A stretch of 64,000 nucleotides of DNA from Escherichia phage Delraymugoa. The stretch is taken from sequence record OR896825.1; one strand, 5' to 3'. How positions within the stretch are numbered: the first letter of the stretch is position 1; each line of letters begins with the position of its first letter. The position numbers were made by a program, and so were the translations under genes. The notes below the pieces were generated by a model that saw only the letters and a program-made list of their open reading frames with translations, was not told the origin of the DNA and did not search any database. Shown piece by piece: positions 1 through 41,773 of this stretch.

Positions 1-134
1 CTGTTAGCAACTTCTTCGCTCATGAAAGAGCACTGTTTGCCGATGGTGTAGCGCACACGCTGTAATTTCAGTTTACGGAAGCCTTTAACGTTCAGGTCTT
101 TAGCGATTTTCTTTGCGGTTTCGATGTTAGCCAT
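1..134 (-). CDS. hypothetical early protein, N-terminal part only (gene runs off window start)
   Basis: ATG at 132-134 (minus) with upstream ggagaatcaaa-type leader; frame open to position 1. Confidence 0.4.
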   Translation of the reverse strand, partial: MANIETAKKIAKDLNVKGFRKLKLQRVRYTIGKQCSFMSEEVAN

Positions 135-174
135 TGTTTGATTCTCCTAAGTGGTATCTCGTCTTGATGGTTGT

Positions 175-204
175 ATTGTAGGGGAGTTATCCTCCCCCTG
201 TCAA
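175..204 (-). promoter_or_regulatory. early sigma70-type promoter (TTGACA-N18-TACAAT) with GGGGAGGATAACTCCCC hairpin in spacer (PeSL)
   Basis: revcomp of 199-204 = TTGACA; revcomp of 175-180 = TACAAT; palindromic spacer. Confidence 0.6.
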
Positions 205-218
205 CACTTTTTATAAAA

Positions 219-386
219 TTATTTGTTAATTTCTGGTGCGTTGCTAGGGTAGTAACCTTCTTTAACTCCGAGGTATTTCGCAACCATCCCTACAATCTTC
301 TGTGCTACTACAATGTCAAATTTCAGATAATCTTCGCCGTGGGTTTCAATGATATATGCTTCACATGCTGCTTTAGTCTCGAACAT
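219..386 (-). CDS. small hypothetical protein (55 aa), paralog of 3501..3668
   Basis: hand translation MFETKAACEAYIIETHGEDYLKFDIVVAQKIVGMVAKYLGVKEGYYPSNAPEINK; below ORF-track size cutoff; about 90% identical to second copy. Confidence 0.6.
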   Translation of the reverse strand: MFETKAACEAYIIETHGEDYLKFDIVVAQKIVGMVAKYLGVKEGYYPSNAPEINK

Positions 387-419
387 TTTGATTCTCCTAT
401 TTCGTTTCGGTATGTGTGT

Positions 420-448
420 ATTATAGGGGATCTCCCGATCCCCGTCAA
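420..448 (-). promoter_or_regulatory. early promoter TTGACG-N17-TATAAT with hairpin spacer (PeSL)
   Basis: revcomp 443-448 TTGACG, revcomp 420-425 TATAAT, spacer GGGGATCGGGAGATCCCC palindrome. Confidence 0.6.
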
Positions 449-462
449 CAACTTTTTTAAAA

Positions 463-744
463 TTATTCGTGATTAGTTTCGATGTTGTACATTTTGCACC
501 AGTTCAGCCAATCGCCCAGATCTTGATAGTTGATGCTTTTATCTGCTGCCATCGTTTTTGTCTTGATACCCATATGTGCGTTATGAGTAAGCATTTTTAC
601 AGTGAACTCGATTTTATCGCCTTTAGCTTTAACATCAACCAGTTTTGTCCACTGGCTACCAGCACCGCGAATGTTCATACCAACGATGTTTCCGATGTAT
701 GCTTCTTTGTTTTTCAGGATTTCGGTTGCTTTGATGAATTTCAT
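463..744 (-). CDS. hypothetical protein (93 aa)
   Basis: ORF with RBS tggagaatcaaaa upstream of ATG. Confidence 0.5.
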   Translation of the reverse strand: MKFIKATEILKNKEAYIGNIVGMNIRGAGSQWTKLVDVKAKGDKIEFTVKMLTHNAHMGIKTKTMAADKSINYQDLGDWLNWCKMYNIETNHE

Positions 745-777
745 TTTTGATTCTCCAGTTCGTTTCGGTATGGGTGT

Positions 778-806
778 ATTATGCTATGTTCTTACTTTGG
801 TGTCAA
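778..806 (-). promoter_or_regulatory. early promoter TTGACA-N17-CATAAT
   Basis: revcomp 801-806 TTGACA; revcomp 778-783 CATAAT. Confidence 0.55.
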
Positions 807-814
807 CAACTTTT

Positions 815-1084
815 TTAGATATTTTCAGAAATAAATTTTAAAACTTGACGTAAATGTTTCTCATCTTTGATAGTCGCCGGAAGTTCTTCTTTTACTTCCT
901 GTGCAAGATAGATATTTCCGTTCCAAGTGAAAGATCCGTCTTCGTTTACGCGATAGCTGAACATCCACTCGCAATCATTTTCGATTTCATATACACACAG
1001 AAGGGTGTAATCGTTAAAGCTATTGATTTCAAGGTCGAAGCCGTGACGTTTTGCAAAGTTGGTAGTGGTTTTAGTCAGCGCCAT
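815..1084 (-). CDS. hypothetical protein (89 aa)
   Basis: ORF with conserved early leader/RBS. Confidence 0.5.
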   Translation of the reverse strand: MALTKTTTNFAKRHGFDLEINSFNDYTLLCVYEIENDCEWMFSYRVNEDGSFTWNGNIYLAQEVKEELPATIKDEKHLRQVLKFISENI

Positions 1085-1124
1085 TGTTTGATTCTCCTAA
1101 GTGGTATCTCGTTTCGATGGGTGT

Positions 1125-1153
1125 ATTATGCTATAGGCGTGATCTGGTGTCAA
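1125..1153 (-). promoter_or_regulatory. early promoter TTGACA-N17-CATAAT
   Basis: revcomp 1148-1153 TTGACA; revcomp 1125-1130 CATAAT. Confidence 0.55.
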
Positions 1154-1173
1154 CAACTTTTTTAATTTTTTGG

Positions 1174-1202
1174 AAATAAAAAAGCCGACACTAAGGTCGG
1201 CT
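1174..1202 (-). terminator. rho-independent terminator (hairpin AGCCGAC/GTCGGCT followed by U-run on minus strand)
   Basis: stem 1183-1189/1196-1202, A-run 1174-1183 on plus = U-run on minus transcript. Confidence 0.6.
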
Positions 1203-1209
1203 AATAAAA

Positions 1210-1518
1210 TCATTTAGACAAATAATCATTCAGTGCAATCCGGTCGGCGTATGCTGGTGTTACGTCAATCGCAATCACTTTAACGCGTGCTTTCTTGCGA
1301 CCTGGGTTTTCTCGTAACCAGTGCTCATGACCGTGAACATTTTTATACTTTGATGCTTCTTCAAATGTACGGATCGGACCTGGATAATCTGCGTAAAGGA
1401 TCTCTAGGTCTTCGGTGATGTAAAAATATACATCATAATTACTGTTCTCTAGTTTAAGCAGAGACTTTCGGAACATTGGGAGATTTTCGCGGGTAAATTC
1501 AAAGATATTATCTTTCAT
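1210..1518 (-). CDS. hypothetical protein, HxHW-AVDV paralog family member
   Basis: motifs HGHEHW and VIAIDV shared with five other ORFs in 1.9-4.7 kb. Confidence 0.55.
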   Translation of the reverse strand: MKDNIFEFTRENLPMFRKSLLKLENSNYDVYFYITEDLEILYADYPGPIRTFEEASKYKNVHGHEHWLRENPGRKKARVKVIAIDVTPAYADRIALNDYLSK

Positions 1519-1571
1519 AGTATTATCCTCAATAGTTTGATGAAAAGGGGTGGGGCTTAACGCCCCGTATA

Positions 1572-1859
1572 TTAAAACAGTCCTTCCTGTACACCGTAGT
1601 AGAGTTCATCGCTGATAATTTCATTAATGCGACGGTGTGCATATTCCTGATTTGCGAAGTTATCAGCAAGTTCTACTTTAGTTTCGCCGTCATGAGTCCA
1701 TTTAGTGATAACTTTACCATCTGCAAATTTGAAGTTGAACTCTTTAGCTACTGCATCGCGTACCAGACGTGCGAACTTGTTGTTACGGATTGCATTATCG
1801 GTTTCGTGTGCAGCGTGAGCGAATTTATTAACTTTCAGAGTGATAGTAATGTATGCCAT
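1572..1859 (-). CDS. hypothetical protein (95 aa)
   Basis: ORF with upstream RBS ctaggagaatcaaat. Confidence 0.5.
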   Translation of the reverse strand: MAYITITLKVNKFAHAAHETDNAIRNNKFARLVRDAVAKEFNFKFADGKVITKWTHDGETKVELADNFANQEYAHRRINEIISDELYYGVQEGLF

Positions 1860-1905
1860 AATTTGATTCTCCTAGTTAGAAAGTGTATCTCGTTTCGATG
1901 GGTGT

Positions 1906-1934
1906 ATTATGCTATACACCCGATCTTATGTCAA
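1906..1934 (-). promoter_or_regulatory. early promoter TTGACA-N17-CATAAT
   Basis: revcomp 1929-1934 TTGACA; revcomp 1906-1911 CATAAT. Confidence 0.55.
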
Positions 1935-1940
1935 CACTTT

Positions 1941-2219
1941 TTATAAAATAATTTTTTGATATTTTTCTATGATGTTTGTGTAGGTCACGTCAACAGCTAG
2001 CACCGTTGCTTCGAATCCACCGTTTAACCAATGGCTATGATCATGATCGTGAAAGAAACCTAGACCAGTACGAAGACCTTCTTTATATTCGGCGCGTACA
2101 TTTAGATCATCATCGATAAACAGATAAAACCATGAATTTTTACTAGGATTGATGATACAACCTTTCAGATTAGGGAGAATATCACGACTAAGAATAAACT
2201 TATCACCTACTTTGAGCAT
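1941..2219 (-). CDS. hypothetical protein, HxHW-AVDV family (start trimmed to MLKVGDKF)
   Basis: HDHDHSHW and LAVDV motifs; RBS GAGGAAAA before ATG at 2217-2219; track start lies in promoter. Confidence 0.5.
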   Translation of the reverse strand: MLKVGDKFILSRDILPNLKGCIINPSKNSWFYLFIDDDLNVRAEYKEGLRTGLGFFHDHDHSHWLNGGFEATVLAVDVTYTNIIEKYQKIIL

Positions 2220-2242
2220 AATATTTTCCTCACTTATAAAGT

Positions 2243-2542
2243 TTAACTGTTGTTTTTCTCGTAATGCTGAATGCGTGCTTGATCTGCTTCCGCTGGTGAT
2301 AGATTCCATGCAACCACTACAACTTCTGACGCATCGTCATCCGTTTCTGATACCCAATGATTGTGATTCATACAGTTATTTGCGATCGAGTGAGCAAATG
2401 ATTTCATCACTGGAGACGTATAATCATAGTAACGGATTTTCAGATTTTCATCAACGTACAAATAGATCGTATAAGGTTTATATTCAGTAACCAGTAACAG
2501 ACAGTTACGCAATTCTGGGAAAATCTTTTTAGTTAATTTCAT
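2243..2542 (-). CDS. hypothetical protein, HxHW family (start trimmed to MKLTKK)
   Basis: NHNHW motif; RBS GAGGAT before ATG at 2540-2542. Confidence 0.5.
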   Translation of the reverse strand: MKLTKKIFPELRNCLLLVTEYKPYTIYLYVDENLKIRYYDYTSPVMKSFAHSIANNCMNHNHWVSETDDDASEVVVVAWNLSPAEADQARIQHYEKNNS

Positions 2543-2543
2543 T

Positions 2544-2762
2544 TTATAATCCTCGGTCGCGGCTATAGTACACGGTACGCCATACAATTTCATGTTTCGT
2601 GTCGCTCCAGCACACGATCTCATTTACTCTTAAATCTTTGTTATCAACAAAAGATGAACATTGTGACGCTTCTTTCATCATTTTATCTGCTGTTTTCTCA
2701 TCAAATACAGCACAGATTTCTTTATACACCCGATAATCTTTGAATTGACTCTGAATACCCAT
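2544..2762 (-). CDS. small hypothetical protein, paralog of 2722..2979
   Basis: shared motif K.Y..I..V.....A.KMM..AS.C.SF with neighbour. Confidence 0.4.
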   Translation of the reverse strand: MGIQSQFKDYRVYKEICAVFDEKTADKMMKEASQCSSFVDNKDLRVNEIVCWSDTKHEIVWRTVYYSRDRGL

Positions 2763-2979
2763 AATTAACACCATTCCAACCAATTGTTTTTGAGAAAACG
2801 TTTATCCACTGTTGAGTGTAACATGTTTCTTTCCATGATACAATACGAGTAGAATAATGGTTTTTGTTTCCAGAAAAGGACGGGCATTTTGATGCATCTT
2901 CCATCATCTTTTCGGCGAACTCTGGTGCGTATACTCGCAGGATCTGTTGATATGCTTTGTATTCTTTAAATTTGCTCAT
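2722..2979 (-). CDS. small hypothetical protein, paralog of 2544..2762
   Basis: shared motif; RBS AAGGTAG upstream. Confidence 0.4.
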   Translation of the reverse strand: MSKFKEYKAYQQILRVYAPEFAEKMMEDASKCPSFSGNKNHYSTRIVSWKETCYTQQWINVFSKTIGWNGVNYGYSESIQRLSGV

Positions 2980-3244
2980 AATCATTCACTACCTTATCAG
3001 CTTCTTTTGTTGTTTTTACATCAACTGCGATAACTCGTAAAGGTTCGTCATGGTTCCACCAGTGGTCATGAATATCAGCTTGTGATTTATCACCAAAGGA
3101 ATCACGAATATCATTTTTACATTTATAGCTAATGTGACCTTCATAGTCAACATAAAGGTAATTATCGAAAATCGGCGTTTTTAAGATCATACCGAAAAAT
3201 CTTTCTTTGTGTGTCTTATCCAGCGTTGCAGTAATTCGCATCAT
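2966..3244 (-). CDS. hypothetical protein, HxHW-AVDV family
   Basis: HDHWW and VIAVDV motifs. Confidence 0.5.
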   Translation of the reverse strand: MMRITATLDKTHKERFFGMILKTPIFDNYLYVDYEGHISYKCKNDIRDSFGDKSQADIHDHWWNHDEPLRVIAVDVKTTKEADKVVNDYEQI

Positions 3245-3256
3245 AATATATTCCTC

Positions 3257-3436
3257 TTAGAAAGGGATGGTCATTTCTTGAGCTTGTACGTTCTCGTTAG
3301 GATTAAACTTCATCCAGCCGATATTGTCTACCAGCATATGCACATTTTTATCATATCCTACGTGGGTAGTCAATACTGTATGTGCTTTACCTTCAATGAT
3401 GAGTTCCATGTGCTTCTGAACTTCGATAGCTTTCAT
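3257..3436 (-). CDS. small hypothetical protein (59 aa), not in ORF track
   Basis: hand translation MKAIEVQKHMELIIEGKAHTVLTTHVGYDKNVHMLVDNIGWMKFNPNENVQAQEMTIPF; RBS and promoter upstream. Confidence 0.5.
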   Translation of the reverse strand: MKAIEVQKHMELIIEGKAHTVLTTHVGYDKNVHMLVDNIGWMKFNPNENVQAQEMTIPF

Positions 3437-3468
3437 TTTGATTCTCCGTTTGTTGTCTTGATGGGAGT

Positions 3469-3497
3469 ATCTTACTACTCCCTTTAATCATTGTCAA
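3469..3497 (-). promoter_or_regulatory. early promoter TTGACA-N17-TAAGAT with GGGAGTA...TACTCCC hairpin (PeSL)
   Basis: revcomp 3492-3497 TTGACA; hairpin gggagtatcttactactccc. Confidence 0.5.
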
Positions 3498-3500
3498 CTA

Positions 3501-3668
3501 TTATTTGTTAATTTCCGGTGCGTTGCTCGGATAGTAACCTTCTTTAACACCCAGATATTTTGCGACCATTCCGGTGATCTTCTGTGCTACTACGATATCG
3601 AATTTCAGGTAATCTTCACCGTGGTTTGCTACAATGTATGCTTCGCATTCTGCTTTAGTCTGGAACAT
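3501..3668 (-). CDS. small hypothetical protein (55 aa), paralog of 219..386 (start trimmed)
   Basis: MFQTKAECEAYIVANHGEDYLKFDIVVAQKITGMVAKYLGVKEGYYPSNAPEINK; ATG at 3666-3668 after conserved leader. Confidence 0.6.
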   Translation of the reverse strand: MFQTKAECEAYIVANHGEDYLKFDIVVAQKITGMVAKYLGVKEGYYPSNAPEINK

Positions 3669-3702
3669 TTTTGATTCTCCTATATCTCGTTGGTATGTGT
3701 GC

Positions 3703-3731
3703 ATTATAGGGGATCGGTGATCCCCTGTCAA
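3703..3731 (-). promoter_or_regulatory. early promoter TTGACA-N17-TATAAT with GGGGATCACCGATCCCC hairpin spacer (PeSL)
   Basis: revcomp 3726-3731 TTGACA; revcomp 3703-3708 TATAAT. Confidence 0.65.
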
Positions 3732-3738
3732 CAACTTT

Positions 3739-4047
3739 TTATTCTTCATCTTCATCTTTATCTTGATATGCGTACTTCATAAATTTGTCTGCTACTTTGT
3801 CCGCGTTTTCAGGTTCTACGTCTGACGCTAGGACAACAGCTAGTTCGGTTTTGTCGTTTCCATCATACCAATGATTATGAGTGTCGTTTTCTTCGATATA
3901 AAACGAATCATTTGGAGTTGTGCGACAATATACGTCTAAATTCCCATCGATATAAAAGATCCAATCCGAATACAAAATGATTGTTTTAGCAAGATTTTTA
4001 TTGCCTTCAACGAAAGGTTCGGCTACAAACAAATTAGTATGTTCCAT
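3739..4047 (-). CDS. hypothetical protein, HxHW-AVDV family (start trimmed to MEHTN)
   Basis: THNHW and ASDV motifs; RBS GAGGAAA before ATG 4045-4047. Confidence 0.5.
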   Translation of the reverse strand: MEHTNLFVAEPFVEGNKNLAKTIILYSDWIFYIDGNLDVYCRTTPNDSFYIEENDTHNHWYDGNDKTELAVVLASDVEPENADKVADKFMKYAYQDKDEDEE

Positions 4048-4063
4048 AGTAATTTCCTCAAAA

Positions 4064-4255
4064 TTATACAGCTTCGTAAACTTCCCAATGTCCAACACCA
4101 GCACGCTTAACGAAAAGGTTTTCTTTGATGTTATTCATAAACGTCTGGATGGATTTAATGCGATTTGAAGGTTTCCAGTCTTCGTTGGTATTGCGTCGAT
4201 ACATCATAACATTACCAGTTCGCTTATATTCAGCAACCATTTTAAGACCACACAT
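4064..4255 (-). CDS. small hypothetical protein (63 aa)
   Basis: ORF with RBS GAGGATAA. Confidence 0.4.
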   Translation of the reverse strand: MCGLKMVAEYKRTGNVMMYRRNTNEDWKPSNRIKSIQTFMNNIKENLFVKRAGVGHWEVYEAV

Positions 4256-4312
4256 AATATTATCCTCAATTTGTGGGAGAGTATTACCCCTCCCAATGAT
4301 TGTTATGTTATA

Positions 4313-4633
4313 TCACACAAAATGGCGTGTCAATGCTTCTTTTGCGGTTCCGCTAAGACTTTCGATCTCGCCTGGCATAACATCAACCGCCAGAACTTCT
4401 ACAACATCCTCGGACCCTAACCAGTGAGTATGGCCTTTGTAGAACTTGATAACCAGACTACCTTCCTCATCCCATTTAACGCTATCGCTAGCCCACCACA
4501 CATCACCGTCGATAAAGTTGATGTAAAGCACACTACGCCACATTGAATTAATTACTTTCAATACTGCGCCTTTCATCTCTTCCACGGTGTGGTCTTCCAT
4601 TTTGAAGACCTCGCCTACCTTAACTTTTGCCAT
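4313..4633 (-). CDS. hypothetical protein, HxHW-AVDV family
   Basis: GHTHW and LAVDV motifs. Confidence 0.5.
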   Translation of the reverse strand: MAKVKVGEVFKMEDHTVEEMKGAVLKVINSMWRSVLYINFIDGDVWWASDSVKWDEEGSLVIKFYKGHTHWLGSEDVVEVLAVDVMPGEIESLSGTAKEALTRHFV

Positions 4634-4650
4634 TTAGTCACCTCTCTTTA

Positions 4651-4830
4651 TTACATAACAATCACGCCAGCCGTTGAAAGTTGATGTTTCAACTGAGCAT
4701 TTTCTGCTACCGTCAAATCAATGATTTCTTGTGAAGCTGCAATCATATAGCCATTGGTGATATTGTTTTGCATCAGTTCAATGGTTTCTTCGTTGTAGCG
4801 GATTTTAGCGATGATTTCGTTGAAGTTCAT
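4651..4830 (-). CDS. small hypothetical protein (59 aa, start trimmed to MNFNEII)
   Basis: ATG 4828-4830 after ctaggagaatcaatt leader; track N-terminus reads through promoter. Confidence 0.5.
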   Translation of the reverse strand: MNFNEIIAKIRYNEETIELMQNNITNGYMIAASQEIIDLTVAENAQLKHQLSTAGVIVM

Positions 4831-4864
4831 AATTGATTCTCCTAGTTCGTTTCGGTATGTGTGT

Positions 4865-4893
4865 AGTATAGGGGATCGGTGATCCCCTGTCAA
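4865..4893 (-). promoter_or_regulatory. early promoter TTGACA-N17-TATACT with hairpin spacer (PeSL)
   Basis: revcomp 4888-4893 TTGACA; spacer GGGGATCACCGATCCCC. Confidence 0.6.
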
Positions 4894-4901
4894 CAACTTT
4901 T

Positions 4902-5213
4902 TTAAAGTTTTTCCATGATAACGGTCATAATTATATCTTCTGCGCGAGCGGTCAGATTATCAGCGTCAGCATGTGGGCGGTTGGTTGTTACAGAGATAAC
5001 ACCGTTGCGCACTGGTTTGATGTTGATATCAAGATGATCCGCGAAACGTTCGCCAGTTACAGAATGAATTTTGGTGTTAAATTCTTTTGCCAGTGCCTTG
5101 CGAACTTCACGAATCAGGGTAGCGTTTTTCAGTTGGTTCTCCGCGCTCATGGTCTTCTGGGTGTTCATGGTTCCGTCGAAGTCAATCATTGGCAGCGTTA
5201 CGATGTATTTCAT
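4902..5213 (-). CDS. hypothetical protein (103 aa, start trimmed to MKYIVT)
   Basis: ATG 5211-5213 after conserved leader; track start is GTG inside promoter spacer. Confidence 0.5.
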   Translation of the reverse strand: MKYIVTLPMIDFDGTMNTQKTMSAENQLKNATLIREVRKALAKEFNTKIHSVTGERFADHLDINIKPVRNGVISVTTNRPHADADNLTARAEDIIMTVIMEKL

Positions 5214-5258
5214 TTTTGATTCTCCGTTTAAGAAAGTGTGTTTCGTTTTGATGTGTGT

Positions 5259-5287
5259 AGTATAGGGGATCACCGATCCCCTGTCAA
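5259..5287 (-). promoter_or_regulatory. early promoter TTGACA-N17-TATACT with hairpin spacer (PeSL), near-identical to 4865..4893
   Basis: revcomp 5282-5287 TTGACA; revcomp 5259-5264 TATACT. Confidence 0.6.
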
Positions 5288-5300
5288 CAACTTTTTTGAA

Positions 5301-5645
5301 TTATTTTTTCATGAGCTTAATGGCTTCTTCCATAGCCAGCACATTTCGATAGTTAGGGTATCTTGTTAGATCGTCATACATTCGCTTAAGGGTGGAAACT
5401 TCCTCAAACTCTGGGTTTTCAAGATACAATTGAACGAATTGTTTCTCTACCATCTCTGCTTTTAGCTTGTCTGCTTGTTCCTGTTCATATGATTTAGTTG
5501 GACCCAACACCAACAAAATGATAAAGGTGATCAACGGGCTAATGATCAACGATAGGAGAACATAACCGATAACGCTACGGTTTAAACGGCTTGCGTACAT
5601 GCCTACCAGGAAAACAAAAAGGATATAGATAAACAGAAAGAACAT
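5301..5645 (-). CDS. small membrane protein (two predicted TM helices)
   Basis: N-terminal hydrophobic stretches FLFIYILFVFLVGMY and VIGYVLLSLIISPLITFIILLVLG. Confidence 0.5.
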   Translation of the reverse strand: MFFLFIYILFVFLVGMYASRLNRSVIGYVLLSLIISPLITFIILLVLGPTKSYEQEQADKLKAEMVEKQFVQLYLENPEFEEVSTLKRMYDDLTRYPNYRNVLAMEEAIKLMKK

Positions 5646-5652
5646 ATAATGG

Positions 5653-6126
5653 TTACTCCTTATTTTCGCGCTCGTACTTTTCGAAATAAAATTCTACTGG
5701 CTGGTCGTGGATTGACAGCAAGCCAAAGCGTTTAGCCGCTCGCAACCCCATATTGCGCTGAATGTACTTCTGGAAGTTCTCGCGTATACACTTACGCCAG
5801 TATTCTAAGCCCATACAGCTTTTATAAAGATTGCATTGCACACACGCCGGATTCATGTTATCAAGTATATCATGTTCCGGTTTATGCATTCCTACAACCT
5901 TATACTTCCACGATCCATCATCATTACGGGCAATTCGTCCATTTTCATCATAGACAACCTTTGAGCGTCGTAATACTGGTTTGATATGGTCTGCGTGCCA
6001 GCGATCCCCTAGTTCCTCGCCACAATAGGCACAACGTCCACCGTATTTCATTTTCAGGATCTGGCGTTGCTCTTTCTTTGACAATTTTTTAGGTTTAGGG
6101 GCTTTCGCCCCTTCATTATCACACAT
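5653..6126 (-). CDS. HNH endonuclease (free-standing, homing-endonuclease-like)
   Basis: CAYCGEEL...HADHIKPV...NMNPACVQCN = CxxC / HxDH / N...CxxCN HNH motif. Confidence 0.7.
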   Translation of the reverse strand: MCDNEGAKAPKPKKLSKKEQRQILKMKYGGRCAYCGEELGDRWHADHIKPVLRRSKVVYDENGRIARNDDGSWKYKVVGMHKPEHDILDNMNPACVQCNLYKSCMGLEYWRKCIRENFQKYIQRNMGLRAAKRFGLLSIHDQPVEFYFEKYERENKE

Positions 6127-7621
6127 CGAATACCTCTTTTACTGTATTTGCAGTGGTCTTGTCGTAGCGAATACGTTTGATGATTGGGAGAAATAAAGAG
6201 AACTCCGGTTCATCTTCTTTACGTGATTTGCTGCGGATATACCCGTTGCATGTCATCTCAATAACTTTTCCAATCAGGTTATGACGGTCAGCCCATAACA
6301 TTTCTCGGTCGAGTTCATTTCGACGATCGAACGGAATTACACGTTCAGTACCATCATCACCTTTTTCGGTTGTAGTGTCGGTTAATCCCGATCCGGTGTT
6401 AGTCATCATTCGTCCGCACGCACTACGGACAGTAAAACCGCCTACCTTATTGGGGTCTTTACTATGCGGATATACATCAACAATTTCCGCGTCGAAGTCA
6501 ATCACTTCTTTAAATTTAACCTGATCTTTACTACGGCGATCTTCAAATACACCATGTAAATTTTTAAGGATAATACCTTCTAAGCCCATGTTGACATAAC
6601 GATGATATACTTCGCGAGCTTCATCGATATTGTTAACTACAGTGTTTTCGATGATCTGAACACGAGGATCGTTAAGTTCTTCAACAATCTGTTTTAGTTC
6701 TTCGAATCGATCTTTATATTGCTTCGTTGCTTTCTCGTTTCCGTAATACACATCACGGTCGATAACATCCCAGACAGTGTAAACAATACATTGGGCTTCT
6801 TCTTTTGGAATAGTTCCTTTAAGTGATTTGTTGAGGATACCATTTCCGGTCTGACGATCTGCAACAACGGATTCTTTCACTGCTTCCGCTACTGGCGTTA
6901 ATGGCATTTCCTCTTCTTCAAATATCCATGACAGAGTACCATCATAAACGCTTTCAACGAAGTTCTGCGCTGGTGTTTGCGAAAGGGTAGGCATATATAC
7001 CAATTCGCCATCTAGAACAATTCCACGGCCTCGTAGACGCTCTAAAACCGCAAACAAATCATCAAGCCCTTGATAGGTATTACCTGAGCGGGTATAGATT
7101 GCTAATGTTTCCCCGTCAATATCAGCCATACCACGAGCGCCATCGCTTTTAAGTTGTGCATACGCCGGATACTTGATATTAGCAATAGTCTTATCAGAAC
7201 ATGACGATGCAAGGTGGCACGGCTGCTGGGGGATCAGTTTCTTCCATACCTTGTTTGCAGTGGTAGCGGAACAGCCGCATTCCAGATCACGATTCAGGAC
7301 CATCATTGCAACTTTAGCATCATCCTCTGACAAGCAAGTCAGAGTATCGGTAACTAGTTGTAATGCTGCATTACCAGTTACTTGACGGGTGGCAAGTTTA
7401 TTTTTAAAGACCTGTAATGCACCGGATAAAGACAATACAGACGAATAGCGAGATGGTTTATCGTATTTCTTTACGCCAAACGTAACCTGTTTGCAATATG
7501 CCAGATAAAAGCATTCTTTCAGCGTTTCATTGCTTGCTGATTCTTTCAGAATCTTTTCTTTCAGCGATGTTTTGTCTGTTGCTGCAAGCTGATTAATGAT
7601 ATTAAGAATTGACATTTTCAC
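6119..7621 (-). CDS. 30: ATP-dependent DNA ligase (T4 gene 30 homolog)
   Basis: KxDG adenylation motif (AQLKSDGARG), 500 aa, position upstream of gene 31/cd as in T4. Confidence 0.9.
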   Translation of the reverse strand: MKMSILNIINQLAATDKTSLKEKILKESASNETLKECFYLAYCKQVTFGVKKYDKPSRYSSVLSLSGALQVFKNKLATRQVTGNAALQLVTDTLTCLSEDDAKVAMMVLNRDLECGCSATTANKVWKKLIPQQPCHLASSCSDKTIANIKYPAYAQLKSDGARGMADIDGETLAIYTRSGNTYQGLDDLFAVLERLRGRGIVLDGELVYMPTLSQTPAQNFVESVYDGTLSWIFEEEEMPLTPVAEAVKESVVADRQTGNGILNKSLKGTIPKEEAQCIVYTVWDVIDRDVYYGNEKATKQYKDRFEELKQIVEELNDPRVQIIENTVVNNIDEAREVYHRYVNMGLEGIILKNLHGVFEDRRSKDQVKFKEVIDFDAEIVDVYPHSKDPNKVGGFTVRSACGRMMTNTGSGLTDTTTEKGDDGTERVIPFDRRNELDREMLWADRHNLIGKVIEMTCNGYIRSKSRKEDEPEFSLFLPIIKRIRYDKTTANTVKEVFDV

Positions 7622-13432: not shown

Positions 13433-13465
13433 CTTGATACTCCTTAGTTGTTTTGGTATGGGAGT

Positions 13466-13494
13466 ATCTTACTACTCCCGTGATATGCTGTCAA
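13466..13494 (-). promoter_or_regulatory. early promoter TTGACA-N17-TAAGAT with GGGAGTA..TACTCCC hairpin (PeSL)
   Basis: revcomp 13489-13494 TTGACA. Confidence 0.5.
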
Positions 13495-13502
13495 CTGCTT
13501 TT

Positions 13503-13652
13503 TTATGCAACCGCAAACATCAACATTTGAACATTCTTGGCTGTCTGGCTTTCAAAGTTCTGACATTCTTTGATAATGTCCTCTACTTTCTCGCCGGAGA
13601 TCTCCGCGTAAGTTTCGATTGCCATTTTCAGTACCGCGTCAAAGTTGTTCAT
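13503..13652 (-). CDS. small hypothetical protein (49 aa), not in ORF track
   Basis: hand translation MNNFDAVLKMAIETYAEISGEKVEDIIKECQNFESQTAKNVQMLMFAVA; conserved leader. Confidence 0.4.
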   Translation of the reverse strand: MNNFDAVLKMAIETYAEISGEKVEDIIKECQNFESQTAKNVQMLMFAVA

Positions 13653-13690
13653 TTGATTCTCCTTAAAGTGTATTTCGTTTCGATGGGGGT

Positions 13691-13719
13691 ATATTACTAC
13701 CCCCGTTTCATGCTGTCAA
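13691..13719 (-). promoter_or_regulatory. early promoter TTGACA-N17-TAATAT with hairpin (PeSL)
   Basis: revcomp 13714-13719 TTGACA. Confidence 0.5.
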
Positions 13720-13938
13720 CTACTTTTTAATGACAAGTTCGAATTTTGCTACCTTGCGTCCTCGTTTATTGAAAGCAACCCACGGACGGTTTTCAATGTA
13801 GAACAATTCTTCGCCAATAATGAATACTGGCTGATTGTAAAGGCGACCCATCAGGTCACGCTGGCGAATGGTAGTAGATTCGTATACTTCGCCTACTACA
13901 AAGTGCTTGCTGATAGAGTCGGTGCAAGTAAATTTCAT
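13720..13938 (-). CDS. hypothetical protein (72 aa)
   Basis: ORF with conserved leader. Confidence 0.45.
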   Translation of the reverse strand: MKFTCTDSISKHFVVGEVYESTTIRQRDLMGRLYNQPVFIIGEELFYIENRPWVAFNKRGRKVAKFELVIKK

Positions 13939-13971
13939 TTTGATTCTCCTTTGTTTCGTTTCGATGGGGGT

Positions 13972-14000
13972 ATATTACTACCCCCGTTATTCAGTGTCAA
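13972..14000 (-). promoter_or_regulatory. early promoter TTGACA-N17-TAATAT with hairpin (PeSL)
   Basis: revcomp 13995-14000 TTGACA. Confidence 0.5.
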
Positions 14001-14007
14001 CTACTTT

Positions 14008-14226
14008 TTACTTGTTGTATTCATTCCACCATTGGGTTAGCTTATCAATTATTTTTGTGTTTCTATCCAACTTCTCCCACCGTTTTCTAGGGTTTATCAA
14101 CCGGAATAGGTAAGGTGTACTTGTTAAGTGAACTCGGTCAATGTAGTGATTGATGTACTGCTTTTCGATTCTAAGTTTCATCTTTTTACGATGAAAATAT
14201 GCAATGACTTGTTCTTCTGTTTCCAT
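14008..14226 (-). CDS. hypothetical protein (72 aa)
   Basis: ORF. Confidence 0.45.
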   Translation of the reverse strand: METEEQVIAYFHRKKMKLRIEKQYINHYIDRVHLTSTPYLFRLINPRKRWEKLDRNTKIIDKLTQWWNEYNK

Positions 14227-14250
14227 ATGTTCCTCCGTTTCGATGTGCGT

Positions 14251-14279
14251 ATTATGCTATGGCAAGATCAGATTGTCAA
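14251..14279 (-). promoter_or_regulatory. early promoter TTGACA-N17-CATAAT
   Basis: revcomp 14274-14279 TTGACA. Confidence 0.5.
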
Positions 14280-14286
14280 CACCCAA

Positions 14287-14315
14287 TAACAAAAAAGTCG
14301 CCACTATGGGCGACT
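14287..14315 (-). terminator. rho-independent terminator
   Basis: hairpin AGTCGCC/GGCGACT then UUUUUUGUUAUU on minus. Confidence 0.6.
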
Positions 14316-14326
14316 TTGAACAAACA

Positions 14327-16483: not shown

Positions 16484-16514
16484 AATAAAATCCTCACTTG
16501 TTTTTGATGGTTGT

Positions 16515-16543
16515 ATTATAGCGGGGATTTCTCCCCTCGTCAA
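16515..16543 (-). promoter_or_regulatory. early promoter TTGACG-N17-TATAAT with GCGGGGA..TCCCC hairpin; copy 1 of 42-bp direct repeat
   Basis: revcomp 16538-16543 TTGACG, revcomp 16515-16520 TATAAT. Confidence 0.6.
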
Positions 16544-16551
16544 CAGTTATT

Positions 16552-17391
16552 TTACAATCCATCGCAAGCATCAATATAAGCACTTACAAAACTTTCTATA
16601 AAAAGTGCTCCGACTTGAGGAACTATCGCATTGCCATAACCGCGCAATCGTCCCATTGTTGAGGATACCCCATCAGCCAACAAGGGAATCGTGGGTTCAA
16701 CAATTCGTTTTTTCCCGTCTCTGCATAGATACTCTGTTCCACTGTCCCAAAACCGTAATACATCTTCACTTGTTCTGATAAATTTCCCGGTGCTAGTGAT
16801 TTCCTCCCCGTTGCAAGTCTCGCTTCCATTCTCCGTTGCATTGCTTCCGGCGATCTTGCTGATATATTCGTTACAGTAGGTGTTTGCCAACTCGTTAATA
16901 GCCCCGAAGAAAAGTCTGTCCCGCTTGTGCGGCGCACCGACGATATCACATGATAATACCGCAGCCCCGACACTGTAACCTTCTCTTTCCAATTCCTCGT
17001 GAAGATCATCCAACCACCCCGTTTCGATAGCTTTTGCAACCTGTTCCCCAAAGAGCATTGGAGGTTTGCACGCTGACACGAGTTTAAGAAATGTCGGTGC
17101 AAGGTGTCTTTCGTCGAACTTTCCTTTTTGCTTTCCGGCTCTTGAAAATGGTTGACATGGTGGCGATCCAGTCCATAGTCTTGTTGTTTCTGGTACTCCA
17201 GCGAGTTGCAATGCTCTTGACCACCCCCCAATCCCCGCGAAGAAGTGACATTGTGTAAATCCTTCCAGATCTCTAGGGGTGACTTCTGTAATTGATCTTT
17301 CATCGACATACCCATAAGGAATTAATTTGTTTGCTATAAGTTCACGTAACCAATTAGCCGCGCCTTTATCCCACTCATTGTAATAATTCAT
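16552..17391 (-). CDS. C5-cytosine methyltransferase-like protein (compact, 279 aa)
   Basis: motif I FFAGIGG, motif IV GSPPCQPFSRAG, motif VI FGEQV, motif VIII KRDRLFF, motif X GYGNAIV. Confidence 0.65.
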   Translation of the reverse strand: MNYYNEWDKGAANWLRELIANKLIPYGYVDERSITEVTPRDLEGFTQCHFFAGIGGWSRALQLAGVPETTRLWTGSPPCQPFSRAGKQKGKFDERHLAPTFLKLVSACKPPMLFGEQVAKAIETGWLDDLHEELEREGYSVGAAVLSCDIVGAPHKRDRLFFGAINELANTYCNEYISKIAGSNATENGSETCNGEEITSTGKFIRTSEDVLRFWDSGTEYLCRDGKKRIVEPTIPLLADGVSSTMGRLRGYGNAIVPQVGALFIESFVSAYIDACDGL

Positions 17392-17409
17392 TCTTACAAT
17401 TCACCTCAC

Positions 17410-17438
17410 ATTATAGCGGGGATTTCTCCCCGCGTCAA
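17410..17438 (-). promoter_or_regulatory. early promoter TTGACG-N17-TATAAT; copy 2 of 42-bp direct repeat
   Basis: revcomp 17433-17438 TTGACG, revcomp 17410-17415 TATAAT. Confidence 0.6.
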
Positions 17439-17446
17439 CAGTTATT

Positions 17447-19690
17447 TTACAGCTTACAGGATGAACACTCGCTAGCGTCTTCCGTACCATCTGCACCGTC
17501 GCGAACGTTCGCATAATACAGGGTTTTCAGACCGTAATATTGAGCAAACAACATATCATCTAATACATCAGCAATATCGACTTTACCAGTCTTATAAGTG
17601 CTTGGATCGTAGGATGTGTTGGAACTAATCGCCTGATCTACAAACTTCTGCATGATCGCTGCCAGTGTCAGATAAGGCTTGTTACCTTTCTTGATCAGTG
17701 TCCAAAGCAGGTCAATAACATCAGCATTATTCTCTACGTTCGGAATAACCTGATTAAATTGCCCTTCTTTCGATCCTTTAACCGATACAATCCCGCGAGG
17801 CGGTTCAATACCGTTTGTGCTGTTAGATACCTGAGAAGATGACTCGCAAGGCATCAGCGCCGAAAGCGTACTGTTACGAATGCCATATTTTTTCAGGTCT
17901 TCGCGCAGTTCTTCCCAATCCATCTCATACACAGGATCAACCAGTTCATCTACTGTCTTTTTGTACCAGTCGATAGGAAGTTCACCGCGTCCATAACGTG
18001 TTTCATGCATCAGTTCGCAAGCACCCTTCTCTTTAGCCAGTTGCACACTAGCCTTAATCAGAGCATATTGCAAGCGTTCAAACGTTTTATGCGTAAACTC
18101 GTTAGCATCTTCATATGTGAAGAAATTATCTGCTAGATATGATGCAAAGTTAGTAACACCAACACCCAGAGAGCGACGTTTTTTGGCTGTCAGTGCTTGT
18201 TCTACAGGATAATCCTGATAATCTAACAGGTTGTCAAGTGCACGCACCATAACCATAGCAATGCGTTCTACTTCTTCCATATTTTCGATATCGAAATTAC
18301 CTAAAACATATGCTGCCAAAGTACATAGGCTAATTTCTGAATCATCACGACCCATCGGTTTTGTTGGCAGAGCAATTTCACAACACAGGTTAGATTGTTT
18401 AATCGGTGCTACATTACGAATAAACGCCCCGTGATTGTTCATGTTGTCTGTGAACGTTGGGTAGATTCGACCAGTGTTAAAACGTTCAATTGCCACCGCT
18501 AAAAACAGGTCTTCGGCTTTAACACGAGTTTTACGAACACTCGGATCTTTTTCCAGTTTTTCGTAAAGTTGGCGGAAACCTTCCTCATCTCGGAAGTATA
18601 GATCCCACAACAAGCCACCTGCAACATCTGGACTAAACAGAGTAATGTAATCCCGTTTAAGGAATCGCTCTACCATCAGGTTATTAATCTGTACGCCGTA
18701 GTCAAGATGGCGAATGCGGTTATCTTCCACGCCCTTATTGTTCTTTAACACAATCAGACTTTCAAACTCTAAATGCCACATTGGGTAATAGAGTGTCGCT
18801 GCCCCGCCACGAATACCGCCTTGTGAGCATGACTTAACGGCAGTCTGAAAATGTTTCCAGAATGGGATAACTCCAGTATGACGAACTTCACCATGCCCGA
18901 TCTTAGATCCTTCCGCGCGAATCATGCCAGCGTTGATACCGATACCAGCACGCTTGCTAATATACTTGATGATTGCATTTGCGGTTTCATTAATACCCTG
19001 CAATGAGTCATCACTTTCAATCACCACACACGAACTAAATTGGCGTGTTGGGGTACGCACACCTGCCATAATCGGAGTAGGCAGAGAGATTTGCTTATTC
19101 GCAACAGCATTATAAAAATCAATCACATGTTCAAGTCGATTTTCTGTCTCTTCTTGATGCAAGCACATACCGATCAACATATACGCAAATTGCGGTGTTT
19201 CGATGATTTTCTTAGTGCTGCGATCTTGAACAAGATATTTCTCTTTTAACTGCATCGCACCAGCATAGGTCATTTTAAAATCAAGTTTATGGTCGATGAA
19301 TTTCTCCAGATATTCCACTTCTTCACGGGAATACTTTTGCAGAATTTCGCGATCATATTTTCCGGTTGCAATATTACGCTCAATATGGCTGTAAAAATCA
19401 ATCGGTTGGAATTGACCGTATACTGATTTGCGAAGCGCGAACATTGCAAGGTTACTTGCTACATATTGATAATCGGGTGTTTCTACCGTGATGTTATCTG
19501 CGGCGACCTTAATCAATACTTTCTGGATATCATTGGTAGACATACCTTCTGTCAGAAGTGGTTCAACCATATCAAACAATTCATATGGATCAACGTTATG
19601 ACCTTCGGCTGCCGCTTCCAGAATTTTCATTACTTTTTCTTTTTCAAACGGAACAGTCAGACCGGAAGACTTAACAACATTTTTAATCAT
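17447..19690 (-). CDS. nrdA: ribonucleotide reductase large subunit
   Basis: 747 aa, catalytic motifs incl. NLCCEI and C-terminal CxxC tail. Confidence 0.95.
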   Translation of the reverse strand: MIKNVVKSSGLTVPFEKEKVMKILEAAAEGHNVDPYELFDMVEPLLTEGMSTNDIQKVLIKVAADNITVETPDYQYVASNLAMFALRKSVYGQFQPIDFYSHIERNIATGKYDREILQKYSREEVEYLEKFIDHKLDFKMTYAGAMQLKEKYLVQDRSTKKIIETPQFAYMLIGMCLHQEETENRLEHVIDFYNAVANKQISLPTPIMAGVRTPTRQFSSCVVIESDDSLQGINETANAIIKYISKRAGIGINAGMIRAEGSKIGHGEVRHTGVIPFWKHFQTAVKSCSQGGIRGGAATLYYPMWHLEFESLIVLKNNKGVEDNRIRHLDYGVQINNLMVERFLKRDYITLFSPDVAGGLLWDLYFRDEEGFRQLYEKLEKDPSVRKTRVKAEDLFLAVAIERFNTGRIYPTFTDNMNNHGAFIRNVAPIKQSNLCCEIALPTKPMGRDDSEISLCTLAAYVLGNFDIENMEEVERIAMVMVRALDNLLDYQDYPVEQALTAKKRRSLGVGVTNFASYLADNFFTYEDANEFTHKTFERLQYALIKASVQLAKEKGACELMHETRYGRGELPIDWYKKTVDELVDPVYEMDWEELREDLKKYGIRNSTLSALMPCESSSQVSNSTNGIEPPRGIVSVKGSKEGQFNQVIPNVENNADVIDLLWTLIKKGNKPYLTLAAIMQKFVDQAISSNTSYDPSTYKTGKVDIADVLDDMLFAQYYGLKTLYYANVRDGADGTEDASECSSCKL

Positions 19691-22240: not shown

Positions 22241-22271
22241 AATATAATCCTCTCTTTGTTTCGATATGTGC

Positions 22272-22299
22272 ATTATACACTATTGCGTTACGCTGTCAA
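22272..22299 (-). promoter_or_regulatory. early promoter TTGACA-N16-TATAAT
   Basis: revcomp 22294-22299 TTGACA; revcomp 22272-22277 TATAAT. Confidence 0.55.
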
Positions 22300-23916: not shown

Positions 23917-23943
23917 TTTATCCTCCGTTGTTTCGATGTGTGC

Positions 23944-23971
23944 ATTATACATTACCACATAAGCATGTCAA
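23944..23971 (-). promoter_or_regulatory. early promoter TTGACA-N16-TATAAT driving the repeat-protein gene
   Basis: revcomp 23966-23971 TTGACA; revcomp 23944-23949 TATAAT. Confidence 0.55.
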
Positions 23972-23995
23972 CACCTTTTTCATAAAATTTTATGC

Positions 23996-24022
23996 AATAA
24001 AAAAGCCTCCCCGAAGGGAGGC
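23996..24022 (-). terminator. rho-independent terminator after gene 32
   Basis: hairpin GCCTCCC-cgaa-GGGAGGC then UUUUUUAUU on minus. Confidence 0.7.
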
Positions 24023-24033
24023 TGTAAAATTCA

Positions 24034-25008: not shown

Positions 25009-25062
25009 TATTCCTTCTTTTGATTGATTTACTAGACTATTATACAGATTTAAATTTACTTG

Positions 25063-40629: not shown

Positions 40630-40652
40630 AATATAATCCTCACGTCAACAAC

Positions 40653-40940
40653 TTATTTTCTGTTGTGGTCACGATATGTTTTAAAATATCCCTCGTACCA
40701 CGGTAAAATATCTGGATTTTTACCACTATACAGACCTTTAACCATCATGTCAATAAGGCCATCTGGTGTTTGATAGTTTCCAGCTTTTATAAGCTCTCTG
40801 ATTAAAATCTCTCTGTATATGTCTTTCGGATCTTCGTAATCAACTTGTATTGTGGTTGTGGTCTCATTCAATTTGGTTTCTGGATTATCTCGCATCGCAT
40901 CCCACCAATCTTTTGTGCTCTTCATGTTATTGAATTGCAT
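40653..40940 (-). CDS. hypothetical protein (95 aa)
   Basis: ORF. Confidence 0.4.
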   Translation of the reverse strand: MQFNNMKSTKDWWDAMRDNPETKLNETTTTIQVDYEDPKDIYREILIRELIKAGNYQTPDGLIDMMVKGLYSGKNPDILPWYEGYFKTYRDHNRK

Positions 40941-40951
40941 AATTTAACCTC

Positions 40952-41710: not shown

Positions 41711-41744
41711 AATATATTCCTCACTGTTTTGTCTTGATGGGAGT

Positions 41745-41773
41745 ATCTTACTACTCCCTTAATCCGGTGTCAA
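41745..41773 (-). promoter_or_regulatory. early promoter TTGACA-N17-TAAGAT with hairpin (PeSL)
   Basis: revcomp 41768-41773 TTGACA; hairpin gggagtatcttactactccc. Confidence 0.5.

Follow-up and report, generated by a model that had tools for sequence, protein, structure and literature searches.

The window analysed here, 64,000 nucleotides (nt) of the genome of Escherichia phage Delraymugoa (record OR896825.1, with positions counted from the first letter of the stretch), carries a dense series of small regulatory cassettes, ten of which lie between positions 175 and 5287. In 2010 Arbiol, Comeau, Kutateladze, Adamia and Krisch defined the promoter early stem-loop elements (PeSLs) on phages phi1 and RB49 (Genome Biol Evol 2:140; PMC2839356). 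In a PeSL, a promoter of the E. coli sigma70 consensus type follows an AT-rich tract and is combined with a stem-loop, for which five positions are possible, and with the Shine-Dalgarno (SD) sequence and start codon of a downstream ORFan. The stem-loops are often of the GGGG...CCCC type, and the elements, 52 in phi1 and 51 in RB49, are repeated in hyperplastic regions (PMC2839356). The cassettes of the window are read here as PeSLs orthologous to the published copies, and to this reading as a whole, including their function and a model of exchange by homology, we give a probability of about 0.9. Such cassettes are already known; they were first described in this genus and at this very locus.

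The window is 93–97% identical to phi1, RB49 and their relatives, which are T4-type phages of the genus Krischvirus. Its first 6 kb match 57 phage records at 90–99% identity, all of them RB49/phi1-type coliphages of this genus, with FL37 as the top match (97.1% identity over the full length). In a collinear alignment (93–96% identity) the window spans phi1 from open reading frame (ORF) 190 through the end of the record to gene 43, and positions 175–5287 are orthologous to phi1 ORF190–ORF212 and RB49 ORF193–ORF212, with the cassettes corresponding one by one to the named PeSLs. Three PeSLs of this hyperplastic region were assayed in phi1/RB49, namely PeSL193/192, PeSL206/205 and PeSL211/210 (PMC2839356). 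The orthologue of PeSL206/205, at 3703, differs from the phi1 and RB49 versions by 1–3 nt, and that of PeSL211/210, at 5259, differs from the published version by a few bases. In the GenBank record of GEC-3S, ten promoters are already annotated at the orthologous sites. All of the features by which a PeSL can be recognized in sequence were found: promoter, AT-rich tract, stem-loop, SD and start codon, hyperplastic location, orthology, and insertions and deletions bounded by cassettes. These, together with orthology to the phi1/RB49 copies, place the cassettes in the PeSL family and bear out an earlier sequence-only reading, which had likened them to the mobile cassettes of T4-type genomes.

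The promoter pattern TTGAC-N16-19-TANNAT occurs 37 times in the window against 4.25 ± 2.15 expected, an approximately 9-fold excess that none of 100 dinucleotide shuffles reached, and 36 of the 37 matches are on the minus strand. All genes are on this strand except those of a tail-fibre/holin block at about 28.1–38.7 kb; genes were called on the minus strand only, guided by the phi1 annotation, and some starts of small genes are approximate. The ten top-scoring promoter-like sites in positions 1–6000 agree with TTGACA/TATAAT at 10–12 of 12 positions, and all are on the minus strand before start codons. Their -10 boxes end at 175, 420, 778, 1125, 1906, 3469, 3703, 4305, 4865 and 5259, by which coordinates the cassettes are designated below. 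They are identical to the ten minus-strand promoters that the sequence-only reading had placed between 175 and 5287. Its 13 further coordinates (13466, 13691, 13972, 14251, 16515, 17410, 22272, 23944, 41745, 42638, 43344, 50788 and 57246) all carry such sites, and five cassettes, at 25039, 42325, 50418, 56677 and 63569, are additional to its list. Its description of the sites as intergenic needs one amendment, as the promoter at 4305–4333 is partly inside the 3′ end of the upstream gene.

Twenty-eight curated cassettes have a common architecture, consisting of an A-tract, TTGACA, a spacer of 16–18 nt, a TATAAT-like box, a CA-rich leader, the ribosome-binding site (RBS) GGAGAATCAAA, and ATG. 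An RBS and ATG lie within 20–60 nt downstream of every one of them. Between 175 and 5287 the cassette typically extends from the stop codon of the upstream gene to the ATG of the next, and a cassette precedes about half of the small minus-strand ORFs. The upstream consensus is tAAAAAAgttG-TTGACA, with A in 21–26 of the 28 cassettes at the five best-conserved columns of the A-tract, and the upstream motif AAAAAGTTGTTGAC, with at most two mismatches, gives 18 matches where 1.3 are expected. For the leader core CGAAACGA there are 10 matches (3.2 expected), and for the RBS pattern GGAGRAYMRAA 13 (0.65 expected), of which 12 are GGAGAATCAAA, on the minus strand at 137, 387, 746, 1087, 1862, 3437, 3670, 5215, 13652, 13939, 43314 and 50201. 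The shared RBS had been noticed in the sequence-only reading, as had a conserved leader, which is real, but in the window reads C or T followed by CGAAACGA and not ACGAAACGA.

The cassettes also form repeats. An independent repeat finder detected families of 5–6 copies of 62–75 nt each in the first 6 kb. The near-identity claimed earlier for certain pairs holds over short tracts of 22–47 nt and not beyond: 47 nt with three mismatches for 4865/5259, 42 nt with one mismatch for 16515/17410, and exact tracts of 22–32 nt in the set 3469/13466/41745. Cassettes 175 and 1125 have a 30-nt leader in common. Three clusters, all in blocks of ORFans, are found at 0.1–5.3 kb (ten cassettes), 13.4–14.3 kb (four) and 40.6–43.4 kb (four and a remnant), and single cassettes adjoin nrdA, ORF239, ORF240, gene 32, srd, modB and g43.

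The promoter cores, taken to begin 12 nt before the -35 box and to end 14 nt after the -10 box, were folded and compared with dinucleotide shuffles; 16 of the 28 (57%) gave z-scores below -2, as against 2% of 92 control promoter-like sites (Mann-Whitney p = 1.3e-5). Over the whole intergenic spacer, a stem-loop is present in a position described for PeSLs in 23 of the 28 cassettes. Seven are in the promoter spacer, nine are over the -10 box with the hexamer in the loop, four are canonical terminators directly upstream, and three are downstream of the -10 box, among them the stem at 57246, which has a 12-nt loop and was assigned by eye. The perfect palindromes filling the spacer that the sequence-only reading had described are real hairpins, but they are inverted repeats with loops of 3–6 nt, and not all are in the spacer: the GGGAGTA..TACTCCC hairpin (GGGAGTAGTAAGATACTCCC) overlaps the -10 box, which sits in its loop. 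No Rfam family was matched anywhere in the window at gathering thresholds.

The potential to form hairpins has been kept while the sequences changed. In the ORF198 cassette the alleles GGGTGTAT/ATACACCC and GGGGATAT/ATATCCCC preserve the stem through two compensatory pair changes. Such changes were read directly from orthologous alignments with 2–5 distinct rows, in which the hairpin families stand in different registers. At orthologous positions in 12 genomes there are nine or more distinct stem sequences, nearly all of which still fold, with a free energy (dG) no higher than -9. Where a canonical terminator directly precedes the cassette, as in four cases, an internal hairpin is always missing, which fits functional equivalence of terminator and hairpin. 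Compensatory changes, varied stems that still fold, and the lack of an internal hairpin next to these four terminators support selection for the hairpin.

Gene gain and loss at the cassettes was examined by structural comparison of positions 1–6500 with 11 relatives, a comparison of cassette-flanked genes also proposed in the sequence-only reading. Four structural polymorphisms were found, and a cassette is the site of at least one breakpoint in each. In the core region, where cassettes occupy only about 10 of about 22 gene junctions, seven of eight breakpoints coincide with one (estimated binomial p ~0.02). In AV108 and SFHK24 ORF210 is lacking between cassettes 4865 and 5259, which form repeats of 75 nt. 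Of the single cassette that remains in AV108, the upstream flank and loop match the 5259 copy and the leader is that of 4865; in that of SFHK24 the switch between the two copies is inside the loop. Both junctions agree with the crossover zones sequenced by Arbiol et al. (PMC2839356). The ORF195/196 module of RB49 and Sf20 is flanked by a 96-nt repeat consisting of cassette 1125 and its terminator, the insertion of ORF192 in FL38 and RB49 abuts cassette 420, and ORF211, present in six genomes and absent in six, has one breakpoint at the A-tract of cassette 5259. The window has its own combination of these modules, with ORF211 as in RB49 and without ORF192, ORF195 and ORF196 as in phi1. Farther along, phi1 ORF263 is absent from the window, with a junction on cassette 41745 at which the alignments overlap by 25 nt (41762–41786), and positions 42375–42877, absent from phi1, begin at cassette 42325 (junction 42374). 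With the comparisons elsewhere in the window, cassette-bounded insertions and deletions with chimeric junctions, like the conservation of hairpin potential, are seen across at least 12 genomes.

A second pair of repeats, 16515 and 17410, flanks a gene for a C-5 cytosine DNA methyltransferase of 279 amino acids (aa) at 16552–17391 on the minus strand (PF00145, E = 3.6e-19). Among about 60 Krischvirus records only KMB43 and LF73P4 have this module; about 58 of 60 have an empty site with a single chimeric cassette in its place, and the single cassette of phi1 is a chimera of the 16515 and 17410 copies. The methyltransferase module and the loss of ORF210 bear out the earlier suggestion that repeat pairs could drive the gain or loss of the genes between them. 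DNA relatives of the methyltransferase gene occur in unrelated phages, the nearest in Cronobacter Seunavirus Csp-D17 (75.7%) and another in Salmonella ST1UNAM (80.7%). When these were searched as donors with a matching cassette, neither copy had an adjoining PeSL-like promoter, and the Csp-D17 homologue is embedded in overlapping genes. A defence-relevant gene occupies a cassette-bounded slot here. According to a 2026 paper, the DNA of some Krischvirus phages has cytosine modifications for which there is no explanation; in SAP and TB34, the two phages studied there, the methyltransferase site is empty.

The ORF211 site also shows differences within coding sequence. When ORF211 is present, the HNH-endonuclease gene ORF212 ends (5646–5675, minus strand) in ...YERENKE* with an embedded AAGGAG SD, and in genomes without ORF211 it ends in ...YDREHQEK* and runs into the A-tract of the cassette. 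The last codons of ORF211, GCTCATGAAAAAATAA (5300–5320, minus strand), resemble the ORF212 end of the genomes that lack ORF211, which indicates that cassette homology extends into the upstream coding sequence.

The function of the cassettes can be outlined from their anatomy. Straight after infection, unmodified host RNA polymerase would read a strong sigma70-type early promoter assisted by an A-rich UP-like tract. A G-rich/C-rich stem-loop is interlocked with this promoter; it may occupy the spacer, overlap the -10 box, or lie close by on the upstream or downstream side. The start site probably lies about 7 nt past the -10 box, downstream of the spacer hairpins and those overlapping the -10 box; with downstream-type hairpins, such as that of 57246, it would be inside the 5′ arm. 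With such a start, the full hairpin would be carried only by RNA reading through from upstream, and the hairpin would act as a terminator or attenuator for upstream transcripts only, each presumably insulating its small gene unit. A short, CA-rich, unstructured leader then leads to the common GGAG-type RBS before the start codon. As DNA, 40–100 nt of near-identical sequence, in one orientation and every few hundred bases, would provide portable homology for the general recombination of the phage, presumably without a dedicated recombinase. Unequal exchange between two cassettes would delete, duplicate or insert the intervening genes and leave one chimeric functional cassette.

Experimental support for these steps is found in the literature on relatives, which is the source for promoter strength, the terminator activity of one stem-loop and the formation of mini-circles. 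The PeSL206/205 promoter gave about 13,000 Miller units with lacZ, the PeSL211/210 stem-loop cut downstream lacZ expression as strongly as rrnB T1, and inverse polymerase chain reaction detected mini-circles arising from PeSL-PeSL recombination around ORF192 and ORF210 (PMC2839356). Some PeSLs border g43 according to the same authors (PMC2839356). According to Nolan et al. (2006; PMC1524935), the early-promoter consensus of RB49, which includes an A-rich UP-like tract and a preference for C at -3 to -1, is in agreement with the mapped 5′ ends of early transcripts. The mapping of early 5′ ends, on which the sequence-only reading had staked its promoters, has in effect already been done in this close relative. 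Early transcription by host RNA polymerase, shown for the relatives, is very likely in Delraymugoa as well. A literature search for PeSL work after 2014 or Krischvirus transcriptomics returned nothing that alters this picture.

Several observations weigh against the account given above. Five of the 28 cassettes have no convincing stem-loop; these are plain promoters or decayed PeSLs. The internal hairpins mostly have no U-tract after the stem (their tails are, for example, ATCGAAAC and ATACTACA), and a scan of positions 1–6000 for canonical intrinsic terminators did not flag them, its sole minus-strand call being 1183–1202. Termination as a general function is thus an extrapolation from a single published assay. 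As almost every stem is a perfect Watson-Crick inverted repeat, a role in RNA and a role in DNA cannot be told apart, and in a comparison of sense and antisense folding energies only two alleles have a G.U pair favouring the sense RNA. The evidence on expression stems from RB49 and phi1, that is, from phages other than this one. The second breakpoint of the ORF211 polymorphism is the ORF212 stop codon, outside any cassette. Finally, ORF191 and ORF205 are 84% identical over about 240 nt that include the cassette, and part of the cassette similarity must derive from duplication of gene plus cassette rather than from cassette exchange.

Hairpin alleles, with the loops ACC, GGT, GGGA and CACGT or of the GGGGAG type, are found at different cassette positions in different genomes. 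The ACC and GGT loops are exact reverse complements and occur at the same orthologous position within identical 95-nt flanks, for example in RB49 versus KFS-EC at ORF205; relatives L003, L006 and L010 have such variants at the ORF205 and ORF210 cassettes. Within the window, the loop of cassette 5259 is the reverse complement of that of 4865 and 3703. The swapped alleles suggest short-tract conversion or hairpin inversion.

The RBS of the cassettes is distinctive too. About half of the cassette genes have GGAGAATCAAA, as against 1 of 91 other genes, among which GAGG is preferred, and a GGAG RBS is present in 17 of 25 cassette genes versus 17 of 91 others (Fisher p = 5.7e-6). As Durand et al. 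are cited in the review of Uzan and Miller (2010; PMC3014915), strong cleavage by RegB/S1 has the consensus GG*AGRAYARAA, unpaired and intergenic, in the translation initiation region of early mRNA. GGAGAATCAAA agrees with this consensus at 10 of 11 positions, with C for A at position 8; the full consensus is matched only at 23916–23926 (GGAGGATAAAA). RB49 encodes a divergent member of the RegB family (PMC3014915). The cassette RBS may be a built-in site of mRNA inactivation, a putative target of RegB. A wider proposal, tentative and with the odds against it, is that the cassette is more than a promoter and terminator, being a pulse-expression unit cut by RegB, and that short-tract ectopic conversion or hairpin inversion, possibly started at hairpin DNA, is ongoing. 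If that were so, infection would turn each PeSL on, insulation would separate it from its neighbours, and cleavage of its mRNA would turn it off again.

The similarity of the cassettes might also have arisen mainly through duplication, tandem or segmental, of genes together with their promoters and through subsequent divergence, so that cassettes simply travel with their genes. Cargo that is itself paralogous points this way, as in ORF191 and ORF205 (both phrog_8009, with the identity given above), in ORF198 and ORF210 (both phrog_7474, with the leader extension ACACTTTCT in common), and in six clustered paralogues in the core region. However, near-identical cassettes precede unrelated genes in 3703/4865, 4865/5259, 175/1125 and the 3469 family, which extends over 38 kb. 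At one orthologous position different genomes have different hairpin alleles with unchanged flanks, which already suggests incongruence of cassette and gene trees, and the junctions of insertions and deletions are chimeric cassettes. Duplication accounts for part of the pattern but not for these, and is unlikely to be its main cause.

The six paralogues are proteins of about 100 aa, of unknown function, with 23–31% identity and the invariant motifs H-x-H-W and V-x-A, encoded within 3.5 kb on the minus strand at 1210–1518, 1941–2219, 2243–2542, 2966–3244, 3739–4047 and 4313–4633. They are interleaved with the pairs ORF191/ORF205 and ORF198/ORF210, also of unknown function, and the order in which the families recur may reflect ancient segmental duplications. 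Ten of ten cargo proteins tested fall into PHROG families of unknown function.

A role of the hairpins mainly as DNA, in which a cruciform or hairpin is the target of an endonuclease VII-type resolvase or of a protein binding GGGG/CCCC and starts recombination, with termination secondary, is consistent with the rarity of U-tracts after internal hairpins and with the clustering of crossovers between hairpin and RBS. The flips between ACC and GGT loops within identical flanks are also as expected of cruciform processing or template switching, and Arbiol et al. speculate on a protein that binds the GGGG...CCCC motif (PMC2839356). Yet no dedicated recombinase is known in phi1/RB49-type genomes, and none of this is needed when T4-type recombination works on less than 50 bp of homology (PMC2839356), which the cassettes supply. 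The lacZ assay with rrnB T1 as its standard and the finding that terminator-bearing cassettes dispense with an internal hairpin both point to RNA, and cassettes without a hairpin, such as 1125, also serve as junctions of insertions and deletions. This makes a primarily DNA-level role improbable. A chance origin of the motifs, as coincidental matches of AT-rich phage DNA to a loose sigma70 consensus, might be suggested by the commonness of weak matches (26 sites in 1–6000 at 9 of 12 positions versus 18.1 expected), but is refuted by the excess and 36:1 strand bias of the strict pattern, flanking motifs over-represented 14–20 times, the folding of cassette cores relative to controls, and the conservation of orthologous sites in 11 relatives.

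As PeSLs, the cassettes of the window are the same in kind as those of phi1 and RB49. They share genus, locus (the hyperplastic region ORF190–211), architecture, ORFan neighbours, and insertions and deletions with chimeric junctions, and the window differs in having its own combination of modules and set of hairpin alleles. PeSL-like composites in T4/PST and KVP40/nt-1 (Comeau et al., 2014; PMC4122927) are also terminator/promoter composites in hyperplastic regions that act as exchange points between otherwise unrelated sequences. In contrast to the cassettes here, they are analogues built on each phage's own promoter consensus; the T-even versions have T4-type early promoters and weaker, AT-rich stems (PMC2839356), where those of the window have sigma70-consensus promoters and G/C stems. 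Early promoters of T4 resemble those of the cassettes in an A-rich tract at about -40 to -44 and in serving early small genes of unknown function (Nolan et al., 2006, PMC1524935; Uzan and Miller, 2010, PMC3014915), and T4 early genes also have GGAG RBSs followed by an A-rich tail. The -35 box, however, is the host consensus TTGACA in the window and GTTTAC in T4 (PMC1524935).

Integron cassettes and lambdoid morons, with which Arbiol et al. compared PeSLs (PMC2839356), are likewise small, self-expressed gene units gained and lost at permissive sites. Unlike integron cassettes, those of the window have neither an integrase nor an attC-type site, and their mobility appears to use the homology of regulatory sequences; unlike morons, they have the orientation of their neighbours and conserved regulatory sequences. 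PeSLs are one of few concrete mechanisms proposed for the turnover of accessory genes in large lytic phages without wrecking the transcription programme, and their correct recognition helps in the annotation and comparative genomics of therapeutic RB49-like phages. The window adds no new principle; the comparison of 12 genomes extends the original evidence from two and supports the published model.

The individual cassettes, all on the minus strand, vary in their state of preservation. The first, upstream of ORF190 (135–216), has an A-tract, TTGACA at 204–199, an 18-nt spacer with the hairpin GGGGAG-gataa-CTCCCC, TACAAT at 180–175, a leader, GGAGAATCAAA, and the ATG at 134 (z = -4.8). The ORF191 cassette (387–460), at the position of phi1 PeSL193/191, has TTGACG, a spacer hairpin GGGGATC-ggga-GATCCCC, TATAAT at 425–420, and GGAGAATCAAA. 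That of ORF193 (745–818) has a full promoter, leader and RBS with z = 0.1, and no stem-loop in any of the 12 genomes compared. In the ORF194 cassette (1085–1202) the canonical terminator AGCCGAC..GTCGGC-TTTTTT at 1202–1183 is followed by a promoter at 1153–1125 with a decayed internal hairpin. The ORF198 cassette (1860–1946) has the hairpin GGGTGTAT-agcata-ATACACCC over the -10 box CATAAT at 1911–1906, and seven relatives have the allele GGGGATAT/ATATCCCC.

In the ORF204 cassette (3437–3500) the -10 box TAAGAT is in the loop of the hairpin GGGAGTA-gtaaga-TACTCCC, a member of the hairpin family of 13466, 41745 and 42325. The ORF205 cassette (3669–3743), the orthologue of PeSL206/205, has a promoter at 3703–3731 of the form TTGACA-N17-TATAAT, matching at 12 of 12 positions, and the spacer hairpin GGGGATC-acc-GATCCCC. 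Upstream of ORF207 is a promoter-like site (4256–4345) whose promoter at 4333–4305 overlaps the 3′ end of ORF208, with a stem-loop TGGGAG..CTCCCA downstream of the -10 box. The ORF209 cassette (4831–4905; PeSL210/209), with the spacer hairpin GGGGATC-acc-GATCCCC, is one arm of the repeat pair around ORF210. The ORF210 homologue itself (phrog_7474) extends over 4902–5213 as the module between cassettes 4865 and 5259, and its own cassette (5214–5300), the orthologue of PeSL211/210, has a promoter at 5259–5287 and the spacer hairpin GGGGATC-ggt-GATCCCC.

In the second cluster, the ORF225 cassette (13433–13506) has the hairpin GGGAGTA-gtaaga-TACTCCC over the -10 box, and the ORF226 (13653–13731) and ORF227 (13939–14012) cassettes both have GGGGGTA-gtaata-TACCCCC, over the -10 box in the former, and GGAGAATCAAA. 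The ORF228 cassette (14227–14317) consists of the canonical terminator AAAGTCGCC..GGCGACTTT-TTTG followed by TTGACA-N17-CATAAT, with no internal hairpin. Of the two copies of the 42-nt repeat flanking the methyltransferase gene, the downstream one belongs to the ORF233 cassette (16484–16556; spacer hairpin GGGGA-gaaa-TCCCC) and the upstream one to the cassette downstream of nrdA (17392–17451; spacer hairpin GCGGGGA-gaaa-TCCCCGC), which has a non-consensus leader before the methyltransferase gene. Upstream of ORF239 there is an early promoter with leader (22241–22311) that matches the consensus at 12 of 12 positions, and in which no stem-loop was found. The consensus promoter upstream of gene 32 (25003–25078) has no stem-loop and a different leader.

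The third cluster includes the ORF262 cassette (41711–41785), with GGGAGTA-gtaaga-TACTCCC over the -10 box, cassette 42325 (42296–42365), with the hairpin GGGAGTA-gtaaca-TACTCCC and the RBS GGAGAATCAC, cassette 42638 (42604–42678), with a decayed hairpin GGTAGTA/TACTCCC (one mismatch) and the leader CCGAAACGAAC, and cassette 43344 (43313–43413), in which the terminator AAGCCGATC..GGTCGGCTT-TTTT precedes TTGACT-N17-CATAAT, a consensus leader and GGAGAATCAAA. At its edge, upstream of ORF260, is a remnant (40630–40657) in which the A-tract and TTGACG run directly into RBS and ATG, and spacer, -10 box and leader are absent. The corresponding spacer of phi1 is complete, at 77 nt, and the adjacent ORF261/262 region (40667–41308) diverges from phi1; the remnant looks like a recombination scar.

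Cassette 50418 (50388–50458) has the hairpin GGGGA-tatatcataatg-TCCCC over the -10 box, and in the ORF005 cassette (50754–50827) a strong hairpin (dG -20.7, z = -5.4) with a T-tract behind it is interlocked with a consensus promoter. The srd cassette (56648–56717) consists of TTGACA-N17-AATAAT, a consensus leader and GGAGAATCAAT, without a stem-loop. In the g43 cassette (63525–63608), one of the PeSLs bordering g43 according to Arbiol et al., a consensus promoter overlaps gene 43 at its 3′ end, and a stem-loop of 10 bp follows the -10 box. In the modB cassette (57213–57286) the stretch from the -10 box to the ATG contains the terminator-like stem-loop GCCTCC..GGAGGC-TTTTTT, whose 3′ arm includes the SD (GGAGG). 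From this arrangement at 57213–57260, its own transcripts would start within the 5′ arm and leave the SD free, and transcripts reading through would be terminated with the SD sequestered.

The cassette of the gene at the ORF240 position (23917–24023) has the terminator AGCCTCCC-ttcg-GGGAGGCT-TTTTT followed by a consensus promoter. The gene itself (22288–23916, minus strand), annotated as an endonuclease in phi1, encodes 542 aa, compared with 460 aa in phi1, and only about the last 112 codons align with the phi1 gene. Its N-terminal part (22624–23910) has been replaced, the protein has repeated CapR-homology and treble-clef zinc-finger domains (PF21817, PF14311), and the replacement ends at the cassette and start codon (23911–23944).

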